From Promethearchaeota archaeon (GTDB taxonomy: Archaea; Asgardarchaeota; Thorarchaeia; Thorarchaeales; Thorarchaeaceae), in the NCBI GenBank assembly GCA_014728035.1, contig WJMJ01000011.1, forward strand, positions 1 through 16,518: a stretch of DNA of 16,518 nt, read 5' to 3'. The notes beneath the pieces were generated by a model, which saw only the letters and a program-made list of their open reading frames with translations, ran no database searches and was not told the origin of the DNA. Every line of letters starts with the position of its first letter. The first letter of the stretch is position 1. A program made the translations under genes and the position numbers. This document shows, piece by piece, positions 2,569 to 16,091 of the stretch.

Positions 2569-4701
2569 CTGCCCAAACGTGCCATAGAAGAAAGATTTCC
2601 TGTGTCAGAAGTTAACAAAATTGCAGAACGAGAGTCCACGGGATTTGGAAGACGCCATTATAGACCAGTCTATGTAATGCACAAGTGGTGGGCAAGAAGA
2701 CTGGGGTCAATTTTTAGAACAATTGTCCTGTATTCACTATTGAGTTCAAATGCGTCAGAAATTTGGAATAAATATGGAGAAGACATAGATCTCTCGGATA
2801 AGGTGATTTTGGATCCCATGATGGGTGGAGGAACAACAATCGTAGAGAGCTTACGTTTTAGTTGTAATGTGATTGGTGTTGACTTGAACCCAGTGGCATG
2901 GTTTGTTGTTAAGAAGCAAATAGAAGATATCGACCCATTAAGAGTAATGGAACTTCTTAAAAAAATGGATAAAGCCCTTGGAGATAAACTCAGAAGATAC
3001 TATTATACTACCTGTCCATATTGTGAAGAACCTTCTACTGGCATATACTATTTCCATGTAAAAGAGATTGAATGCAAGCGTTGCAAAGAAAATGTACCAT
3101 TAATGAGAAATTACATTCTTGCAAAATCTAGGTCAAAAAACTGCACATTTGTTGTCTGTCCAGGTTGTTATGAAGTGTTTGAAGTGGACAACGTAGATCA
3201 GGTTCTGAACTGCCCGAGATGCAACAGTGGGTTTAATCCTAAACGGAGCGGAAATATTAGAGGAAGAAGCTATGTCTGTCCAAATTGTGGGATTAGAGAA
3301 GGAATTGTGGAAGCAATCAGAGAACGTGGGAAACCAAAGGAGAAAATGTACGCTATCGAATACTACTGCAGCAAATGTGATGCTAGTAAAAACGACGATT
3401 TGGCTAATGGAAGGGGATACAAAGCTAGTACTCACGAAGACTTGGAACTCCAACTCAGAGCTGATGAAGAATATCAAAAAGTGAGAGGGGATTTACCCAT
3501 TCCTGCTATAGAGATTCCAAAGGGTGTAGAAACCAAGAGAGCATTGAATCATGGCTATAGAAGATTTAGTGACATGTTCAGTTCAAGACAACTCCTAACT
3601 CTTGGAAAAATTTTGAAATGGATTATAGAAATTGAAGAGGGAAATGTGAAAGAATTCTTCCTGTTAGCATTTTCCAACTGCCTCAAATACAATAATACAT
3701 TCTGTAAATACAATGCGACACAAGGATTCATTACAGATATTTTTAGAACGCATTCGTTCTCTCCGTCAATGGCACCTGTTGAAGGTAATGTGTATGACAT
3801 TCCCAAAGGAAGAGGCGCATTCACTGCGTTTGTAAAACTCATAATAGAGGGGAAAGAATATTGCAGAGCGCCCTTTGAACGAATCTTTGAGGAGGGAAAG
3901 ATGCACAAGAGAAAGCTTGCAACTTCAATCGATGCCGAACTTGTACAAGATCCAACACAATTGATAGGGGGGAAGAAAGCAATCCTGAGATGTGGTTCCT
4001 CACATACTCTGGATATTCCTTCAAAATCAGTTGATGCAGTCATAACCGACCCTCCATATGCAGACAATGTGATGTATTCTGAACTATCCAATTTCTTCTA
4101 TGTATGGTTGAAACCAGTCCTTTCTGAGAAATATGAATGCTTTAGAACAGAATTGGTACCCTGGGAAGAGGAGATTATTGAAAATGAAACACAAGGTAAA
4201 GGTGCTGAAGAGTTTCTTGAAAGTCTCATTACAGTCTTCTCGGAATCAAAAAGAGTACTCAAAGAAAATGGAATTCTAGTATTCACTTTCCATCATAAGA
4301 AGATTGAGGCATGGAAATCAATTCTTAGGGCAATTCTTCAGGCGGGTTTCACCATTTCAGCAACACATCCGGTGAGAAGTGAGATGAAAGCCTCAACACA
4401 TCTCTATAAGGTAAATAACATTACCATCGATATGATTATCGTGTGTAGAAAGAGGACAGAAGAAAGAAAGATGGAGTCGATAGATAAGCTTAGGAAATCA
4501 ATTAGTAAGGAATCAAGGAAACTGCTTGCAAAACTCAAGGCTTCAGGAAAGAAGATTGAAGAGCCAGATATTAGGGCATTGGTACTAGGGAAGTGTATGG
4601 AGGTCTATTCAAGGTACTATTCAGAAGATAACCAATGTATTTCGAAAATTCAAGAGGTTCTTAGTCTATCGGAGGATATTACAAAGAGACTATCAAAATA
4701 A
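2569..4701 (+). CDS. DUF1156/COG1743-type Zn-ribbon-containing amino (N6-adenine-type) DNA methyltransferase
   Basis: HKWWARRLGS, motif I DPMMGGGT, DLNP, catalytic TDPPY, six CxxC pairs. Start extended from GTG2602 to CTG2569, where GGAGG lies at 2557-2561 and the added peptide KRAIEERFP matches the family N-terminus. Confidence 0.88.
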   Translation: MPKRAIEERFPVSEVNKIAERESTGFGRRHYRPVYVMHKWWARRLGSIFRTIVLYSLLSSNASEIWNKYGEDIDLSDKVILDPMMGGGTTIVESLRFSCNVIGVDLNPVAWFVVKKQIEDIDPLRVMELLKKMDKALGDKLRRYYYTTCPYCEEPSTGIYYFHVKEIECKRCKENVPLMRNYILAKSRSKNCTFVVCPGCYEVFEVDNVDQVLNCPRCNSGFNPKRSGNIRGRSYVCPNCGIREGIVEAIRERGKPKEKMYAIEYYCSKCDASKNDDLANGRGYKASTHEDLELQLRADEEYQKVRGDLPIPAIEIPKGVETKRALNHGYRRFSDMFSSRQLLTLGKILKWIIEIEEGNVKEFFLLAFSNCLKYNNTFCKYNATQGFITDIFRTHSFSPSMAPVEGNVYDIPKGRGAFTAFVKLIIEGKEYCRAPFERIFEEGKMHKRKLATSIDAELVQDPTQLIGGKKAILRCGSSHTLDIPSKSVDAVITDPPYADNVMYSELSNFFYVWLKPVLSEKYECFRTELVPWEEEIIENETQGKGAEEFLESLITVFSESKRVLKENGILVFTFHHKKIEAWKSILRAILQAGFTISATHPVRSEMKASTHLYKVNNITIDMIIVCRKRTEERKMESIDKLRKSISKESRKLLAKLKASGKKIEEPDIRALVLGKCMEVYSRYYSEDNQCISKIQEVLSLSEDITKRLSK

Positions 4702-6972: not shown

Positions 6973-8031
6973 CTAATACACTTCTAGACTAGATACTTGG
7001 TGAACCCAATATGCACCATCATATTCTGCTGCAATAAGCCAGAGTTCATCTTCAGCTACAGAGAGAATCAATCTATTATCAGTCATTACATCTGAAAGTC
7101 TAAACACTACCGAGTACCCATCACGAGCAGCAACCTTGAGCATAGAAGCTTCAGTGGATGGAGAAGCTTCATGTAAAATTCGACTAAGGGGAATCCCAGT
7201 ATAGTTTGCAGGAGGAAGATGAGTATACGCCCCTTGCAGCTCGGCTTCAATAGTTATTTCGGAATCGGAAAACATACCTGAAGTGTAGGTATATGGATGT
7301 TCCACAAGGCCTGTTACTTCACAAGAATAGGGGTCTACGAATGCACGAGCAACAAAACCAACATAATACACAGAGCCGATTGCGAGAAAGAGAACAAATG
7401 CAATAGCAGGTAGATTCCTGAAAAAACTCCTTCTTGGAGTTGATGGTTTTAATTTGGGGGATTTAGCATCAATAATTCCGGTTTCTTGGATGAATTCAAG
7501 TGTTTCCCATGCAAAGTACCCCGAAAAAATAATTCCAGAACAGAATGCAAGGACAGCTATTAATCCAATATAAACCCAAGGAGCACCTGAAAAGTACACA
7601 AACTGAAAGACCAGTACATTTGACGCTGAAGCAATACCACCAATCATCCACCAAGAGAATCGAGTAAAAACATCTGATTCGGAGGATTCGTTTATCACAA
7701 TCCCACCTAAATCAATTAAAACACCTTGAACCAGAGAAACCAATACAATAACAACCCCATGAGTGCTACCTGTGAACAATTCTACTAGACCCTTGAGAAA
7801 TCCTCCAAAAGTTCCTGAACCGGTTCGAGGAACAAGAATACGAATCAAAACTAACCAGAAAACATGCAAGCCCGCCATGAATTGTCCAGCACCAAAAGGA
7901 ACACCCAATGCCAAATTGATTAAATTCCCTAAATATCCAATGAAAGTACTCAAGGCACCTCCTAACGAACCAAGTATTGCAATCGTAACAATATCACGTG
8001 TATTCAGATGAGGAGAATCTTGATTTTGCAT
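6973..8031 (-). CDS. ECF S component (YkoE/ABC_cobalt-like) fused through a 7th TM to a C-terminal molybdopterin-oxidoreductase-like (SUOX-fold) domain
   Basis: LNTRDIVTIAILGSLGG start and about 6 TMs; basic linker plus an extra TM; C-domain with EVTGLVEHP, YTGIPLSRIL, AARDGY and GAYWVHQVSSLEV, and no Mo-ligating Cys. Confidence 0.82.
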   Translation of the reverse strand: MQNQDSPHLNTRDIVTIAILGSLGGALSTFIGYLGNLINLALGVPFGAGQFMAGLHVFWLVLIRILVPRTGSGTFGGFLKGLVELFTGSTHGVVIVLVSLVQGVLIDLGGIVINESSESDVFTRFSWWMIGGIASASNVLVFQFVYFSGAPWVYIGLIAVLAFCSGIIFSGYFAWETLEFIQETGIIDAKSPKLKPSTPRRSFFRNLPAIAFVLFLAIGSVYYVGFVARAFVDPYSCEVTGLVEHPYTYTSGMFSDSEITIEAELQGAYTHLPPANYTGIPLSRILHEASPSTEASMLKVAARDGYSVVFRLSDVMTDNRLILSVAEDELWLIAAEYDGAYWVHQVSSLEVY

Positions 8032-9581
8032 TACACAATCACCTCAATTAATAACACGAATCGAACCCATCTCGCACCAGCAGATGGATATAGATGATAG
8101 CCCATACCAGGAGGGGAAGTCTGCTGGCAATCAGAATTACTATAAGCCTCATCCTCTGGCATCATGACTATACGGAACCCATCATGCCATTCAGGAACTT
8201 TGGTACCATTGTATTCATACGCTAATACCATATCGCCCTGTTTCGAATACCAACTCTCATTAGGATATATATTATCGTATGAGAACATTTGACCAAATCC
8301 ATCATGAGCTATTATCCGAATCTTTGCACTAGAAGATATACCACCCACAATATCCAATAAATTGGACAGCTTTACACCAATATACTCACCATAACCTCGC
8401 CAGTTATCATATTGATTCTGAAAAGATGAGAACCCAGAAATTTTTGTTAGCTGTTGTAAATCGTTAATTGAAAGTGTGACATCCTCATCAATTCCTCTAA
8501 CTACCAGCATATTATTTTGAAATGAGGGGGCTTCAAGTTCAATCGGACCAATATCAAATCCAGTTGTACGGATGGTCACATTTGTGTAATGGTAAAACCC
8601 ACCATTTTCTGGGGAAGCATATAGACTCGCACCAGCACCACCGGAAATAACATGAGTAACATCGTTTTTTACGACCAAACTGAACATATGAATGTGCCCA
8701 GAAAATAACACATTTACTCGATATTCTTCAAAAATTGCGAGAATTGCACTAGCTGTAGCCGAGTCAATAAGGGAGTGATTACCGCCAGGACGTGGATCGA
8801 ATAGTGGCATGTGAGTGATTGCAATTTTTTTCTCATAAGGAGTTGCAGAAAGAGTGTTCTCAAGCCAGACAATATCATCTTGCGAAACAGTACCTGAAGA
8901 TGTATCAAAAGAGAGGAATAAGACCTGTTTATAGACAAACGAAAACCTTGTTGGTCCAAAAAAGTCATCAAACCGTTCTAATCCTCCTAAACGTATATCA
9001 TGATTGCCCGGGGTTGTAAATACAGGGACTGTTGATTTTGAAAGAGCAGATGAAACTGATTCGTATTGGTTCTTTTGACCGAAGGGGGTTAAATCTCCAC
9101 AATGGAGCAGAAAATCAGGATGAAATTCATTTGCATCAGATACGATTTGTTCAATCCCACCTTGAAAGCCCTGAGAGTCTCCAAACACAAAGAAATTCAG
9201 TGGAGTGCTATCATCTACCGTAGAAAATTCCAATGAAACATCTAAATTGGTAGGGTTAATCTCAATAATCGTTGAAATAGATGTATTTCTAATAAACAAA
9301 TAGTCAGTGGTGCTCTCTACATTCAACTGAGTAGGGATGATATTGGTGACATTCATATGAAAAACACCAAGATCATAAGAACCATTCCAACTGAGATGAA
9401 TCATAAAGTCTAAGCTAGATGCCCTAACTATGGCAGAATCGGATTCAATATGTAGTACATGACCCCCTTCCACAGATATAGTAGGAGGAGATCGAAATGG
9501 ATTAATTATAGTTACAACTATGATAAATCCGGTCAATATGACCAATACTGAAATACCAAGGGCAACGGTTCTTTTTTCCAT
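8031..9581 (-). CDS. Membrane-anchored calcineurin-like metallophosphoesterase fused to a C-terminal molybdopterin-oxidoreductase-like domain
   Basis: N-terminal signal anchor; motifs GDSQ, GDLT, GNHD, THMP, GHIH; C-domain YIGVKLSNLL, AHDGF, LAYEYNG, GFRIVM, RWVRFVLLIEV; TAATG coupling to the S gene with a GAGGTGA SD. Confidence 0.85.
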   Translation of the reverse strand: MEKRTVALGISVLVILTGFIIVVTIINPFRSPPTISVEGGHVLHIESDSAIVRASSLDFMIHLSWNGSYDLGVFHMNVTNIIPTQLNVESTTDYLFIRNTSISTIIEINPTNLDVSLEFSTVDDSTPLNFFVFGDSQGFQGGIEQIVSDANEFHPDFLLHCGDLTPFGQKNQYESVSSALSKSTVPVFTTPGNHDIRLGGLERFDDFFGPTRFSFVYKQVLFLSFDTSSGTVSQDDIVWLENTLSATPYEKKIAITHMPLFDPRPGGNHSLIDSATASAILAIFEEYRVNVLFSGHIHMFSLVVKNDVTHVISGGAGASLYASPENGGFYHYTNVTIRTTGFDIGPIELEAPSFQNNMLVVRGIDEDVTLSINDLQQLTKISGFSSFQNQYDNWRGYGEYIGVKLSNLLDIVGGISSSAKIRIIAHDGFGQMFSYDNIYPNESWYSKQGDMVLAYEYNGTKVPEWHDGFRIVMMPEDEAYSNSDCQQTSPPGMGYHLYPSAGARWVRFVLLIEVIV

Positions 9582-9665: not shown

Positions 9666-10427
9666 TTACTGTTGCGGAAGGCCAGATATACGAATGGTAC
9701 GAGCAAGGGACAGCAATTCAGTGCTCTTTCTCCACAAGGCGGTTTTTTCGAGTGTGTTTGCAATAACACCAGAATAAACAGTTTTCAGATGAGGAGTTAA
9801 CTCCAATTTTGATAGTGACAGATAGGTTTCAAAAAGATTCCAAACAAGTTGATACTTTCGAGCATCTCCAATTGGATCAGTGTCAAGAATACTAGCTGCG
9901 ACGCCACCAATGTCTTTAATCCAGCTACCCGATGATGATTCTTCAAAATCAATTCCAATGATGCTATCATCAAAGATGAAATTACGTAATCGAGGGTCTC
10001 CCTTAATACGACCAGATACACTATGATATTCGTTGTACCATTCAGCTAGAAGTTTGGTTGTGTTTACAGAGAAGGTTTCATTTAGAACATCAACCAAAGG
10101 ACGGCCTGCCACATAGGACATCAAGATAACACCATCTTCAGCACCTAAGACAGTAGGGACAGAAACTCCGTTCTTGGCACACAGTAGAAGCTGCTCTAAC
10201 TCCTTTGTAAAAAATTCAGTCAGAAAGAGCTTGGCAACCAGATGATCATTACCAACTCGAAATGAGAAGACTATATTCTTTTTGCTTCTGAATCGCTTCA
10301 CATCAGCAGCCTCGGCAACAACCCCATACCTCTTTGAGAGAAGAGTTTCAAGAACTTCGAATCGGTCGAGAGGTGCTACAGCTCCATCCAATCCAGTTTG
10401 GAGCGCGTCATTCTCAATAAGTCGCAT
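9666..10427 (-). CDS. Atypical kinase of the protein-kinase-like superfamily (RIO/Bud32/Kdo/APH-like)
   Basis: VAKLF (beta3 Lys), KELEQL (helix C Glu), GVSVPTVL, LMSYVAG hinge, catalytic loop KGDPRLRNF, DFE. Start taken at ATG10427; the track start is 10466. Confidence 0.8.
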   Translation of the reverse strand: MRLIENDALQTGLDGAVAPLDRFEVLETLLSKRYGVVAEAADVKRFRSKKNIVFSFRVGNDHLVAKLFLTEFFTKELEQLLLCAKNGVSVPTVLGAEDGVILMSYVAGRPLVDVLNETFSVNTTKLLAEWYNEYHSVSGRIKGDPRLRNFIFDDSIIGIDFEESSSGSWIKDIGGVAASILDTDPIGDARKYQLVWNLFETYLSLSKLELTPHLKTVYSGVIANTLEKTALWRKSTELLSLARTIRISGLPQQ

Positions 10428-10515
10428 ATCAATCGTAAATGATATTCTGTTATTAGAGATTATCATTTACCAATTAAATTAAAACAACATGAACCCATTA
10501 TGTCCTGAACGAACC

Positions 10516-10883: not shown

Positions 10884-11750
10884 TCAGAAGAGAACATAGG
10901 AAGAGTAATCGTTGATGAAGTCATCTGAGAGGGGATTTCCAGACAATAGGACTTCCTGCATATCCGAAAGATAGGAAAGTACAGATAATTCGATATATGA
11001 AAGATGATTATCAGAAAGGTCCAAGATATTTAGTGAGGGCAGCTCAGCTAAAGGACGAAGGTCTATTTTCGACAAGTTATTTGCTCCAAGAACAAGAGAA
11101 TGAAGCGATGAGCATTCTGCTAAAGGTGACAAATCAACGGTGTTAAGCTGATTATCACTGAGATTTAAAATCCGTAGTTCTCTACAGGCAGATAATGAAG
11201 TCAAATCAATTTCTCTTATTTGATTTCGATTTAGAAGAAGAATCCGAAGTTCAGAACAGGTATTCAAAGGATCAAGAACAACATGGGATAAGGCATTGAA
11301 AGCAATCGAAAATTCTCTGAGACGTTCTAGTGATTGTAAAGGGCTCAAATCAATCTGTTCCAAGTACGTTCGAGTTAACCGTATAGATTCCAGACATTGA
11401 ATCGAAGAAATAGGCCCCAAATCAATAGTGTGAAGAGGATTGTATGAAAGAGAAAATCTCTGAAGGGAAGGATGATACATTAGAGGCGTCAAATCAATAT
11501 TCAAGAGAGAATTGTGACTCAAATCAAGCCACTCTAGTTCTTTACATTCAGTCAACGATTCAAGGTCTAATTTTACCAAGTTATTTCTCGAAAGAACTAA
11601 CTTACTTAGATTTGAGAAATTAGCAAGTGCAGAAAAATCTAATTCGTAAATGTCCATATTTCGCAGATTGATTGTCATGGAATCAATTGGAAAGCTGATG
11701 ACACCAATTGTGCCATCAGTTTTTATAAAATCCAATTGAATGGTCTTCAA
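10884..11750 (-). CDS. Leucine-rich repeat protein (about 10 repeats of 24 aa)
   Basis: Repeated LxxLxLxxNxLxxIDLxPLxxCxxL. Likely TTG start at 11750 after GGTGG; the alternative TTG11768 overlaps the mtnA stop. Confidence 0.92.
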   Translation of the reverse strand: MKTIQLDFIKTDGTIGVISFPIDSMTINLRNMDIYELDFSALANFSNLSKLVLSRNNLVKLDLESLTECKELEWLDLSHNSLLNIDLTPLMYHPSLQRFSLSYNPLHTIDLGPISSIQCLESIRLTRTYLEQIDLSPLQSLERLREFSIAFNALSHVVLDPLNTCSELRILLLNRNQIREIDLTSLSACRELRILNLSDNQLNTVDLSPLAECSSLHSLVLGANNLSKIDLRPLAELPSLNILDLSDNHLSYIELSVLSYLSDMQEVLLSGNPLSDDFINDYSSYVLF

Positions 11751-11764
11751 ATCTATGCCACCAA

Positions 11765-12799
11765 TCAAGCTTCATAGAGCTTGCGCATCTTCTCTTCAGT
11801 AGGGGCCTTTACCACACCTTTATCGGTAATGATAGCCTCCACCAAATCTGGGGGAGTCATATCAAATGCAGGATTATACACCTTGGCAGTAGGTACGGTA
11901 ACATATTCATCATTGATAATACGAATTTCATCTTCATTGCGTTCTTCAATAATCACATCTTCAGGATTTGTTTCCATATCTATTGTTGACCAAGGAGCTA
12001 CTGTATAGAAGGGGATGTTATGATATTTTGCGGTTATGGCCATTGTGTATGTTCCGATCTTATTTATCACATGGCCGGTGCGAAGAATTCGGTCAGCACC
12101 AACGACACAACAATCAACCCGCCCCTGTCTGAAAACAGTACCAATCATTCCGTCCGTGATTAGCGTAACATCAATGTCATCCTCCATAAATTCAAAAACG
12201 GTTAGCATTGCTCCTTGCATTCGAGGACGTGTTTCTACTGCATATACTTTGATATCAGAATATTCTTCATGTGCAACTCGAACAACTCCACCAACAGTGC
12301 CAAGATGAACTGTAGCCAGAGAACCAGCATTACATATGGTCTGAATTGTGTAGCCAGGTTTTATCAAAGATAATGCATGCTCACCCATTTGCCTACACAT
12401 ACGAACATCTTCTTCTGCAATTTCTTTAGCCTCCTCTATCAACTGCTGAATTATATCCTCTGCAGTACCAGCCAAGGATCTAGCTTTGTTGAGCATTCGT
12501 CTAGTGGCCCATGTTAGATTGTAAGCAGTAGGACGGGTATTCAGAGTGTCTGCAGCTTTTTCTAAATATGATATGATCTCATCTTTTGTCCGTGCATTGC
12601 TCTCAATGGCTGCTAATGCCATTCCCATACCAGCTGCAGCACCAATTGCTGGAGCTCCTCGAATTTCCATGATTTTTATTGACTTGGCAATTCTTTTGTG
12701 GCTATCAGTAACCACATGTTCAACCTTCAAAGGTAACTTTGTCTGATCAACAAGACGAACCTGATTTGATTCATCAAGCCATTCAATTGTTCTAAACAT
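11765..12799 (-). CDS. mtnA: S-methyl-5-thioribose-1-phosphate isomerase (eIF2B-related family)
   Basis: DQTKLP, MEIRGAPAIG, TRPTAYNL, CNAGSLAT, ETRPRMQG, VGADRI, NKIGTY, NPAFDMTP. Confidence 0.92.
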   Translation of the reverse strand: MFRTIEWLDESNQVRLVDQTKLPLKVEHVVTDSHKRIAKSIKIMEIRGAPAIGAAAGMGMALAAIESNARTKDEIISYLEKAADTLNTRPTAYNLTWATRRMLNKARSLAGTAEDIIQQLIEEAKEIAEEDVRMCRQMGEHALSLIKPGYTIQTICNAGSLATVHLGTVGGVVRVAHEEYSDIKVYAVETRPRMQGAMLTVFEFMEDDIDVTLITDGMIGTVFRQGRVDCCVVGADRILRTGHVINKIGTYTMAITAKYHNIPFYTVAPWSTIDMETNPEDVIIEERNEDEIRIINDEYVTVPTAKVYNPAFDMTPPDLVEAIITDKGVVKAPTEEKMRKLYEA

Positions 12800-12810
12800 A
12801 GTAAATCATC

Positions 12811-13299
12811 TCATCTATTTTTCAAGACCCGTTTCAGCATTTTCACGATGCCAATTGCGACCTCATATATCTTTGGAGTCAAGCCCTCTCCAAATTGAAG
12901 ATTTTGAGGTTGAATACCAAGTAGAACTGTTTGTGCTCCTGTTTCTTGTTCTAAATATAACATCAACAAAGAAAGAGGCATACTATGAGTACTTATTGTA
13001 ATACCCTTAATTCGATCTTTAGTGACAAGTTCAATATGTCCAACTTGCTTTTGCATATCAGCAGCATCTATCATGATAATCCGTTCTGCACCAAATTCTG
13101 CCAGGGGTCTTGCAAACGCTTCTGGAACGGAACCAACATTTTCAACTAGAACATCAGAATCATCGATAGATAGATTCTTCACAATATAAGGACCAACCCC
13201 ATCATCAGTACGAAGGTCATTCCCAATACCGAGTATCGCAATCTTATGTATACCCTGAACAAAATGTTTCAATTCAGATTCTACACCGAAGTCGTTCAC
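12811..13299 (-). CDS. hycI: Hydrogenase maturation endopeptidase, HycI type
   Basis: ILGIGNDLRTDDGVG, VPE, IDAAD, STHSMPL, LLGIQP. Confidence 0.9.
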   Translation of the reverse strand: MNDFGVESELKHFVQGIHKIAILGIGNDLRTDDGVGPYIVKNLSIDDSDVLVENVGSVPEAFARPLAEFGAERIIMIDAADMQKQVGHIELVTKDRIKGITISTHSMPLSLLMLYLEQETGAQTVLLGIQPQNLQFGEGLTPKIYEVAIGIVKMLKRVLKNR

Positions 13300-13393: not shown

Positions 13394-13996
13394 ATGTCAG
13401 AAGAATCCGAAGTGATGGAAAATGTACAAGATGAAGAGGAGGAGGAGGATCCAGCTTACGTCATTTATAAAGACGGAAAGGGTTATGTTCCAAAGGAAGA
13501 ATCTGACAGAATTTCTCAACAAGGCTTCTATGGAACTCGGCTTGATAGTGGAGAACTTGAACTCAAACCAATAGAAATTCTCCACCTAATAGAGAGAAAA
13601 AGAATAGTCATAGCTACTGATGACAGCAAAGAAATTCTTGCAAAAGACATAGTAAGTGATAGAATTCAAGATGATGAGGACATATGGGTTAAATATTTGG
13701 TTTTTCGGGACCTCAGAAGTAGAGGGTATGCAGTACGAGAAGGATTTGGAGGGGGTATCGATTTTCGAGTATATGCAAGGGGAGAGAAGCCAGGTCAATC
13801 CAATGCAAACCTTTTGATCTATGTAATGCGTGAAGGAGTTGCAATCTCACTAACTGACTTAGATATGGTAACTGAAGCAGCGTCTGCTTCAAGAAAGAAA
13901 CTTATCTTCGCTCTTGTAGACCAAAATGGAGAAGTCAATTATTACAAAGTCGCACAATCGAAACTTAAAGGAGAAACAGATATAGAAAATGAATGA
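13394..13996 (+). CDS. endA: tRNA splicing endonuclease subunit, likely structural (beta-type)
   Basis: L..IE.LHL N-domain; KYLVFRDLRSRGY.VREG..G.DFRVY; SRKKL..A.VD..G.V.YY. The KYG motif and catalytic His are absent. Confidence 0.88.
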   Translation: MSEESEVMENVQDEEEEEDPAYVIYKDGKGYVPKEESDRISQQGFYGTRLDSGELELKPIEILHLIERKRIVIATDDSKEILAKDIVSDRIQDDEDIWVKYLVFRDLRSRGYAVREGFGGGIDFRVYARGEKPGQSNANLLIYVMREGVAISLTDLDMVTEAASASRKKLIFALVDQNGEVNYYKVAQSKLKGETDIENE

Positions 13997-15307: not shown

Positions 15308-15404
15308 GGGCCCGTTGCCTAGCCCGGATAGGGCACCAGCCTCCTAATGGCATTCAAAGCATGGAGAGAGTTGGTTTTCGCCGGTTCGAATCCGGCCGGG
15401 CCCG
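15308..15404 (+). tRNA. tRNA-Arg(CCU) with a 22-nt intron at position 37/38; CCA not encoded
   Basis: Acceptor GGGCCCG/CGGGCCC plus discriminator G; anticodon stem CCAGC/GTTGG; loop CTCCTA^A; T arm GCCGG TTCGAAT CCGGC. Confidence 0.95.
15347..15368 (+). other. tRNA intron with a relaxed bulge-helix-bulge motif
   Basis: ATGGCATTCAAAGCATGGAGAG; central helix CTCC/GGAG, with 3-nt TA^A and AG^A at the splice sites. Confidence 0.9.
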
Positions 15405-16091
15405 CTACGGTCTTTTCAGAATATAAGACCCATCTTTCGTTCCGATATGTACCTCATCAGTCATTCCAACAAACAATCCAGTTTCCACAACACCAGGAAT
15501 CATTTTTAGATCTATGGCGACTTGATGGGGATTATCAATAGGATTGGAAAACTTCAAGTCAAGAAGAAAGTTACCATTATCCGTGACAACAGGGCCCATC
15601 TTCCTTGTTGCTTCTCTCACACTTGGTTCGATTCCCATAGCCTTAATTTTTCGAAGAACTACACCCATTGCAAATGGAAGCACTTCAATTGGAACTTCGA
15701 AACGAGTTGCAAGTCTATCAACAAGCTTGGACTCATCAGCTATAATAACCAGTTTTTCAGATGCAGAAGCAACAATTTTCTCCTGAAATAGGGCACCACC
15801 CCCACCTTTTGTCAAATTAAGGTTTTCATCAACTTCATCTGCACCGTCAACAGTAAGTACTAGTTGTGGATGCAAATCCAGATTTGTGAGGGGAATCTGA
15901 TATTGTACTGCTAGTTGATATGCTTGATAGGAGCTTGGCACTACGGAGATAGCAAGTTCTTCATCATTTACTCTTCGACCTAATTCTTTGGCAAAAATTG
16001 CAACAGTCGAACCGCTTCCGAGACCTAACGCACCATGATCAGGAATCAGGGCAACAGCACTTTTTGCAGCATTTAGTTTCGCATTGGGCAT
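15405..16091 (-). CDS. rpiA: Ribose-5-phosphate isomerase A
   Basis: GLGSGST, DGADEVD, KGGGGAL..EKIV, TDNGN, PGVVETGLF. Confidence 0.97.
   Translation of the reverse strand: MPNAKLNAAKSAVALIPDHGALGLGSGSTVAIFAKELGRRVNDEELAISVVPSSYQAYQLAVQYQIPLTNLDLHPQLVLTVDGADEVDENLNLTKGGGGALFQEKIVASASEKLVIIADESKLVDRLATRFEVPIEVLPFAMGVVLRKIKAMGIEPSVREATRKMGPVVTDNGNFLLDLKFSNPIDNPHQVAIDLKMIPGVVETGLFVGMTDEVHIGTKDGSYILKRP

Follow-up and report, generated by a model that had tools for sequence, protein, structure and literature searches.

The 16,518-nt window analyzed here is the whole of positions 1 to 16,518 of contig WJMJ01000011.1 (assembly GCA_014728035.1, Promethearchaeota archaeon). Five co-oriented genes on its minus strand encode a kinase-like protein, a surface metallophosphoesterase (hereafter the partner), the substrate-binding (S) component of an energy-coupling factor (ECF) transporter fused to an additional domain, a fused double ATPase (AA') and a T component (Table 1). 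The stop codon of the partner gene overlaps the start codon of the S fusion (TAATG), the AA' gene starts 10 nt past the S stop and is preceded by a GGTGA motif, and the AA' and T genes overlap by 4 nt. A T component and a double ATPase, i.e., the defining parts of a group I ECF transporter, are encoded at the locus in genes that overlap or abut, with a synteny that extends across nearly all of 80 loci. On sequence grounds, S, AA' and T form a dedicated group I ECF importer of the YkoEDC kind. This system is found almost exclusively in genomes that use the molybdenum/tungsten (Mo/W) pterin cofactor yet are unable to make it.

Table 1. Genes of the operon and parts of the S fusion and of its partner (positions in the window; aa, amino acids; TM, transmembrane; ORF, open reading frame; K+R, Lys plus Arg)
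Feature	Positions	Strand	Evidence or remark
Kinase-like gene, 266 aa (distant Bud32/RIO/APH fold)	9666..10466	minus	84 bp upstream of the operon
Surface metallophosphoesterase (partner), 516 aa	8031..9581	minus	PF00149 E 6.3e-16; PF00174 E 1.1e-3
Partner: N-terminal TM anchor, residues ~5-27	9501-9569	minus	
Partner: calcineurin-like phosphoesterase domain, residues 129-299	8685-9197	minus	PF00149 E 6.3e-16, above cut-off
Partner: SUOX-like C-domain without Cys ligand, residues ~341-516	8034-8561	minus	PF00174 E 1.1e-3
S-component fusion protein, 352 aa	6973..8031	minus	uninterrupted ORF
S fusion: S core, residues 1-186, six TM helices, YkoE family	7474..8031	minus	PF09819 (residues 12-109) E 4.6e-16
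S fusion: Lys/Arg-rich flexible linker, predicted cytoplasmic, residues 187-206	7414..7473	minus	K+R counts; pLDDT 50-60
S fusion: seventh TM helix, residues 207-231	7339..7413	minus	hydropathy peak 2.26 at 209-228; helix in model
S fusion: SUOX/PruR-like domain without Cys ligand (C-domain), very probably extracellular, residues 232-352	6976..7338	minus	domain model pLDDT 90.5, pTM 0.83
Fused A-A' ECF ATPase, 484 aa	5508..6962	minus	PF00005 in two stretches, E 6.9e-60; TIGR04521 and TIGR04520, E ~1e-95
ECF T component, 272 aa	4693..5511	minus	PF02361 (CbiQ) E 1.7e-26; TIGR02454 E 7e-18

A sequence-only reading of bases 6973-7450, i.e., residues ~195-352 of the S fusion (linker, seventh TM helix and C-domain), had described an S component extended by a Lys/Arg-rich linker and a seventh TM helix that would place a SUOX-like domain of about 120 aa outside the cell. 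The S component core is borne out by its Pfam family (Table 1), by a profile match to YkoE (5edl, E 0.006) and by Foldseek: with the model of the whole fusion as query, YkoE is the top match (E 1.9e-5, TMt 0.74) and SUOX-fold proteins come next. In the AlphaFold2 model, built on 32 homologues (mean pLDDT 78), residues 11-184 form six helices; a linker of low confidence leads to another helix (207-231), and residues 236-351 make up a beta-rich domain. Residues 190-206 of the linker read KSPKLKPSTPRRSFFRN, and the stretch 181-206 is 24-31 aa long in the 32 homologues.

The topology was deduced from the termini of S components and YkoE, from positive-inside charge counts and from relatives of the C-domain that bear signals. 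In S components both the N- and the C-terminus are cytoplasmic. The C-terminal helix of YkoE protrudes into the cytosol (PMC5037267). Since this terminus is cytosolic, and since it is followed here by a K/R-rich linker and a single additional TM helix, the C-domain is expected outside. The mean K+R counts of the predicted cytoplasmic loops (32 homologues) are 1.3, 1.6, 0.8 and 5.1, the last value being that of the linker (residues 177-206), vs. 0, 0, 0 and 0.2 for the predicted outside loops; these charges agree with an outside rather than a cytoplasmic domain. The C-domain itself is acidic (D+E 17 vs. K+R 4.6). Among its relatives, P0158 stands behind a lipoprotein-type signal and P0124 behind a single N-in anchor, and the partner has an N-terminal anchor. 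The C-domain is thus very probably extracellular, as had been proposed. A complex prediction between S core (8-186) and C-domain (233-352) has a score of 0.01 and is no evidence on docking in either direction.

In teaching, ECF transporters are presented as ABC importers devoid of a binding protein, and their toppling mechanism was derived from bare six-helix S units. Here a predicted outside domain of 120 aa is fused to the S unit, and a homologue of this domain is carried by the partner ectoenzyme. The idea that such a fusion breaks the rule stands for the domain itself; it is too strong for the ECF class, which is not strictly without extracytoplasmic helpers. CbiN, NikN and NikK/L are membrane-anchored extracytoplasmic helpers of group I metal ECF S units, and natural CbiM-CbiN and NikM-NikN fusions exist. 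These helpers, which serve in metal loading, are short loops or small proteins and have no SUOX fold. No account of an S component that carries a fused domain outside the cell was found in the literature searched, the coverage of which is incomplete, so that this absence is unproven. The seventh helix and the surface domain raise two questions, namely how capture is coupled to toppling and whether the linker is a mechanical solution.

The fold of the C-domain is that of the SUOX family. With the C-domain model alone, VIA-align ranks SorA (Z 14.7, 122/123 residues, root-mean-square deviation 2.6 A), SoxC (Z 14.4, 120 residues, 2.5 A), plant sulfite oxidase (Z 13.7, 123 residues, 2.6 A), PruR (7kos, 7kou and 7rkb, Z 13.1-13.2, 115/123 residues, 2.6-2.7 A) and YedY (Z 11.5); Z falls to ~7 below this block. 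Foldseek gives TMq values of 0.72-0.81 to SUOX enzymes, and all strong matches (E < 0.01) have the SUOX fold, bar one integrative model (9a64). The homology is also detectable in sequence: a profile built from 21 C-domains (three lineages) retrieves SoxC (E 2.6e-6) and SorA (E 5.9e-5) from the PDB, in which it does not reach PruR, and residues 271-325 of the S fusion match weakly PF00174 (Oxidored_molyb, E 1.4e-3). The SUOX-like character claimed from the letters is therefore well founded. The matches are confined to residues 63-223 of SorA and 145-309 of chicken sulfite oxidase, and the S fusion ends at residue 352, right behind the core of ~120 aa, with neither a dimerisation nor a redox partner domain.

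The «LEGC» segment of SoxC, the Cys of which we regard as the Mo ligand because of where it stands in the family motif, aligns with «ELxG(A/S)» of the C-domain. In 79 full-length relatives the aligned position is occupied by Ser, Ala, Thr, Val or Gln and never by Cys, in agreement with the lack of a Cys ligand already noticed. Moreover, 24/79 C-domains contain no Cys at all, and the sole common one, C237, sits at the membrane-proximal start of the domain. No Cys is thus available in the hairpin, whatever the register. Near the former Cys position, Ser is found at residue 268 (35/79) and His at residue 271 (58/79). The motif pattern quoted by the sequence-only reading is conserved in the same 79 relatives, i.e., G241, V243, Y277-x-G279, D304-G305-Y306 and W342-V343; D304, G305 and W342 are invariant (79/79) and Y306 is present in 76/79. 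The DGY and the C-terminal W-V motifs align with those of SorA and SoxC.

The comparison of the C-domain with enzymes of the SUOX family (SorA, SoxC, YedY/MsrP, sulfite oxidase, nitrate reductase) leads to common and distinct features: (i) the core fold and a detectable sequence homology are shared; (ii) the Mo-ligand Cys is lacking; (iii) the size is about half that of the catalytic Moco (molybdenum cofactor) domain, and there is no dimerisation or haem domain; (iv) the C-domain, unlike these enzymes, is very probably anchored outside behind a Sec-type TM helix. Judged from its sequence, the C-domain is not a SUOX enzyme.

PruR, a periplasmic protein of Agrobacterium and other Proteobacteria (7kos, 7kou, 7rkb, 7kom, 7kp2), resembles the C-domain in that it is also a small outside domain of SUOX fold without the Mo-ligand Cys. 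It holds the pterin ring between Y104 and W160, with a hydrogen bond to N102; its Mo-Cys is replaced and its Moco cleft truncated (PMC11194511). Aromatic Tyr and Trp residues stand in the equivalent DGY and C-terminal W motifs of the C-domain, and from these motifs Y306, W342 and D304 may correspond to the residues around the pterin. The differences are also clear: (i) PruR is free in the periplasm and signals to the DcpA diguanylate cyclase-phosphodiesterase, whereas the C-domain is fused to a transporter subunit; (ii) the «PW» motif found in PruR at the former Cys position is absent from the C-domain, and the identity is 14-21%; (iii) the DcpA-type GGDEF/EAL operon partner of PruR is absent here, the neighbours being ECF subunits, a phosphoesterase and a kinase-like gene. 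Such a context, motif and identity indicate that the C-domain is not a PruR orthologue.

The binding pocket of the S core was mapped through a HMMER alignment to 5edl, read with the residue numbers of the YkoE paper. Thiamine is bound in YkoE by Y46, W49, E77, Q95 and D131: E77 and Q95 hydrogen-bond the aminopyrimidine ring, W49 stacks, and Y46 and D131 are ligands of the thiazole (PMC5037267). The two pyrimidine ligands are kept in the S fusion, as E84 (79/79) and Q102 (78/79). On the contrary, the residues specific for thiamine are replaced: W49 by H56 (79/79), Y46 by A/S53 and D131 by Q143. The sequence therefore describes a pocket still suited to a ring of the amino-pyrimidine type, yet not a thiamine pocket. 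The likeness to YkoEDC, the group I thiamine/hydroxymethylpyrimidine (HMP) ECF system of B. subtilis, includes PF09819, the six-helix fold, a dedicated operon, a fused double ATPase (YkoD-like), a CbiQ-type T unit and the pyrimidine-bonding Glu and Gln. YkoE stops after helix 6 with a cytosolic tail, whereas the S fusion goes on with the linker, the seventh TM helix and the extracellular domain; where YkoE has its Trp and thiazole ligands, the fusion has His, Ala/Ser and Gln; and, in contrast to YkoEDC, the distribution of the fusion follows the Moco status and not the thiamine status.

A protein search with the S fusion gave 646 matches, and the full-length fusion occurs in more than 600 database proteins. 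The best 120 of the 646 matches are 340-374 aa long, with 57-76% identity and 95-100% query coverage; the closest relative (76% identity in protein and genome searches) comes from a Thorarchaeota metagenome-assembled genome (MAG). Relatives were found in 115 species of two phyla (one genome scanned per species), and 80 loci out of these species were kept for synteny, all with an essentially full-length match except a few cut by contig ends. The Asgard carriers are MAGs with Thor-, Hermod-, «Prometh-» or Odin labels; the others are many Thermoplasmata and two MAGs that bear a Firmicutes/Bacillota label. The gene order partner, S fusion, AA', T is found in nearly all loci with enough flank. An assembly artefact or a chance fusion is ruled out by more than 600 full-length homologues, by 115 species and by the fact that close relatives are always fused; the objection that homologues might be separate genes thus fails. 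S units with two tandem C-domains also occur (P0164).

Two proteins first taken for stand-alone domains (P0122, P0123) are in fact N-truncated fragments of fusions, whereas P0124 and P0158, in anchored or lipoprotein form, are genuine stand-alone relatives of the C-domain. The giant Big_9/cadherin proteins P0146 and P0185 were judged to be summed weak matches to Ig-like repeats and hence no true relatives. The two MAGs labelled Bacillota/Firmicutes (L058, L065) contain a full operon of archaeal type, with 44-45% identity; misbinning or horizontal transfer could explain them.

The partner combines a phosphoesterase and a SUOX-like domain in Thor and Thermoplasmata loci. The nearest named families of its phosphoesterase are the CpdA and SpdA (cyclic-nucleotide) phosphodiesterases, far below their cut-offs. 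The profile of the partner C-domain is homologous to that of the S C-domain (hhalign probability 96.5%, E 8e-10) and has no match in the PDB at E <= 10; the SUOX identity of the partner C-domain is thus based on the Pfam match (Table 1) and on hhalign. In Thermoplasmata an extra PF00174 protein of 819 aa is encoded directly upstream (L062). Tandem arrays of 2-4 or more related SUOX-like domains are carried by proteins of 375-1556 aa (P0157, P0160, P0165, P0172, L062:2032-4491, L041:4852-5979), some of which also bear CARDB or Ig-like domains; in Thermoplasmata and Hermod loci, the genes of such proteins immediately precede the ECF genes. The kinase-like protein matches Pfam APH (E 2.8e-5) and RIO1 (E 4.7e-5), and NCBIfam Bud32 (E 1e-6) far below cut-off. 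In most Thor loci a homologue immediately precedes the operon on its own strand; in many Thermoplasmata loci one follows next to it, on the opposite strand.

The use and the synthesis of the cofactor were compared in five genomes that bear the system: the source genome (97.9% complete, 8.5% contamination), a closed Thermoplasmata-like chromosome (G001), a second Thor, a second Thermoplasmata and one Hermodarchaeum. The pathway markers surveyed were MoaA, MoaC, MoaE and MoeA, plus ThiC, which controls for general auxotrophy. Not one of the five genomes (0/5) has MoaC, the MoaA C-terminal domain, MoaE or MoeA_N, the same searches being positive in 11/14 control genomes. All five nevertheless encode enzymes that need the cofactor, i.e., 4-9 copies of AOR-family tungstopterin enzymes and 2-3 Mo/W-bisPGD enzymes each.

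The comparison was extended to a sample of 101 genomes of the window's phylum, evenly drawn and at least 80% complete. A full-length system is present in 27, MoaC in 55 and AOR in 98. The 27 carriers are all devoid of MoaC; the non-carriers split into 55 with MoaC and 19 without, so that system and MoaC never coincide. MoeA splits in the same way, apart from a single carrier in which a small contig bears MoeA. On the whole, 46/101 Asgard genomes have several tungstopterin enzymes and none of the Moco biosynthesis markers tested. MAGs can miss genes, yet an effect of assembly is unlikely here, since all four markers are lacking at once, both in a closed chromosome and in dozens of MAGs.

The same switch is seen within families. 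In the window's own family (f1) the system-negative genomes G009, G020, G057 and G074 are all positive for MoaC and MoeA. So is the only system-negative genome of family f12 (G067), a member of a genus that also includes nine carriers. In family f21 the system is absent from G095, which has both MoaC and MoeA, and present in G062 and G099. ThiC is absent in every member of these three families, carrier or not, i.e., it does not switch with the system. In Thermoplasmata (101 genomes of the class of G001, with 15 carriers and 86 non-carriers) MoaC is found in 3/15 carriers (in one of them as a partial match) vs. 57/86 non-carriers (56/85 without the unpublished G193).

Some genes of the carriers point to a possible handling of the cofactor inside the cell. 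Small ORFs of ThiS/MoaD fold are present, some of them beside AOR genes in genomes without MoaE (G000:C151:107614-116084, G002:C5:63696-75132, G004:C18:25330-28718). Three Asgard carriers also have an ORF of 273-298 aa with a MoCF_biosynth (MogA/MoaB/CinA-type) domain (G000:C94:69899-70414 and homologues in G002 and G004), the sole Moco-pathway-like domain that remains in them; it is absent from the two Thermoplasmata carriers. From its domain, this ORF could be a cofactor-handling or a CinA-like protein. No tungstate-binding protein of WtpA/ModA type was found at E <= 1e-3 in the five carriers, TupA not being part of the search.

Altogether, we consider it somewhat more probable than not that the system is an importer by which the Mo/W pterin cofactor is salvaged, with a tethered domain for its capture, the binding and the transport being predicted from fold, pocket and distribution. 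The surface domains of the S unit and of the partner would capture a pterin-type cofactor released by other cells, the likeliest ligand being the Mo/W pyranopterin cofactor or a product of its breakdown. The phosphoesterase, where present, may trim the cofactor, e.g., by cleavage of the dinucleotide or removal of a phosphate. The tethered domain would then raise the local concentration of ligand at the S pocket, or pass the ligand over to it. The six-helix core would topple against T as in other ECF systems, with ATP hydrolysis by AA' powering the import, while the flexible linker of 24-31 aa may keep the seventh TM helix and the C-domain upright. The kinase-like neighbour may re-phosphorylate the product, as its conserved adjacency would suggest. 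Archaea that no longer make the cofactor would in this way obtain it for their many tungstopterin enzymes.

Several observations weigh against such a salvage importer. A fold by itself proves no function, the ligand of the C-domain is a predicted one, and the match to Tyr and Trp of PruR comes from motifs rather than from a superposition of residues. The Mo/W cofactor is chemically labile when free, though the host archaea live in anoxic sediments. The C-domain is as truncated as PruR, and PruR binds simple pterins, not Moco (PMC11194511). The Hermod-group partner (375 aa) has SUOX-like domains in tandem, two or three of them, and a phosphoesterase could not be detected in it; trimming by a phosphoesterase is therefore not universal. 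Three Thermoplasmata genomes hold both the system and MoaC (two full matches, one partial). ThiC is missing in all 27 system-bearing Asgard genomes, i.e., in these lineages the system co-occurs with general auxotrophy, and related genomes are non-independent observations. Lastly, 19/101 Asgard genomes, several of them ~100% complete, have AOR (3-16 genes each) and neither MoaC/MoeA nor the system (G007, G033, G034, G044, G048, G059, G065, G068, G071, G076, G078, G081, G083, G089, G091, G093, G097, G100, G103). A divergent copy of the system was not found in 4/5 such genomes searched directly, and G034 displays only a bare S-like ORF of 216 aa (E 5e-8). Another source of cofactor must thus exist, and the system is not the sole route.

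The same architecture might serve another heteroaromatic cargo, such as a simple pterin (a folate or methanopterin precursor), 7-deazaguanine or HMP/thiamine, with the SUOX-like domain as a generic device for capturing planar rings. The membership of the S core in the YkoE (thiamine/HMP) family with two pyrimidine-binding residues kept, the binding of neopterin/monapterin and not Moco by PruR, the nearest small structural relative, and the lack of ThiC in the Asgard carriers speak in this sense. We hold it nevertheless as unlikely: W49, Y46 and D131 of YkoE are replaced family-wide, ThiC is present in two system-bearing Thermoplasmata, among the pathway markers surveyed the system follows the loss of MoaC/MoeA and not the ThiC status within families, and such a cargo does not predict a zero overlap with Moco biosynthesis in the 101 Asgard genomes. 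An importer of thiamine or HMP in particular was down-weighted on account of the pocket replacements, of ThiC in these two carriers and of the lack of ThiC switching within families.

Alternatively, the outside domain would bind no substrate and act as a docking or scaffold module towards the partner ectoenzyme or the envelope, or as a sensor or gate of transport. Its presence on the partner and in tandem arrays on large surface proteins would suit a module for protein-protein or envelope contacts. The invariant residues, however, cluster in the pterin-site motifs of SUOX and PruR (DGY, W-V, Y-x-G) and not on a generic surface, and the complementarity with Moco biosynthesis is left unexplained, which makes this reading quite improbable. 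Less probable still is an outward function, in which the ECF module would deliver a cytoplasmic pterin cofactor to extracellular apo-domains, i.e., surface redox enzymes with a metal ligand other than Cys. It could draw on the Ser or His near the former Cys position, and there is a precedent in Listeria, where flavin trafficking for extracytosolic flavinylation depends on ECF subunits; ECF subunits that serve cofactor trafficking outside the cytosol are described (PMC9973259). But carriers without MoaA, MoaC, MoaE and MoeA have no cofactor of their own to export, and the C-domain has neither the Cys nor the dimerisation and redox partner domains of SUOX enzymes.

As regards novelty, no prokaryotic importer of Moco or of the tungsten cofactor was found in the literature searched; this coverage is incomplete and the absence is unproven. 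Nematodes in which Moco synthesis is lacking or bypassed (C. elegans, Haemonchus) take up ready-made dietary Moco (PMC7619442), by a transporter that is not defined. The analogy with the salvage importer lies in the ready-made cofactor obtained from outside for Moco enzymes; the difference is that it concerns an animal system. The system described here is probably the first candidate microbial importer of ready-made Mo/W cofactor. It may even be, although we would put this more tentatively, the first prokaryotic uptake system for the Mo/W pyranopterin cofactor, the Asgard and Thermoplasmata groups concerned being cofactor auxotrophs that scavenge from their community. Tungstopterin enzymes hold a central place in the fermentation of peptides and aldehydes that Asgard archaea are proposed to carry out. 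If the salvage importer is real, the Mo/W cofactor would be a traded «vitamin» of anoxic sediments, which would help to explain the syntrophic dependence of Asgard archaea, and it would suggest a supplement for their cultivation.

A Rfam scan of the window (E <= 1), which would have retrieved a riboswitch or RNA leader, gave two tRNAs and nothing else. One of them, at 15308-15405 (plus strand), is a putative «tRNA-Pyl» of 98 nt called by ARAGORN with anticodon CTA (Rfam tRNA, 44.8 bits); its length suggests an intron or a long arm, and the anticodon is a program call only. A tRNA-splicing endonuclease gene lies at 13394-13996, 1.3 kb from it. The neighbours unrelated to the operon include a protein of 699 aa with a C-terminal N6/N4 DNA methylase domain (2602-4701, plus strand), a leucine-rich-repeat protein of 294 aa (10884-11768, minus strand) and a HycI-type hydrogenase maturation protease (12811-13299, minus strand).

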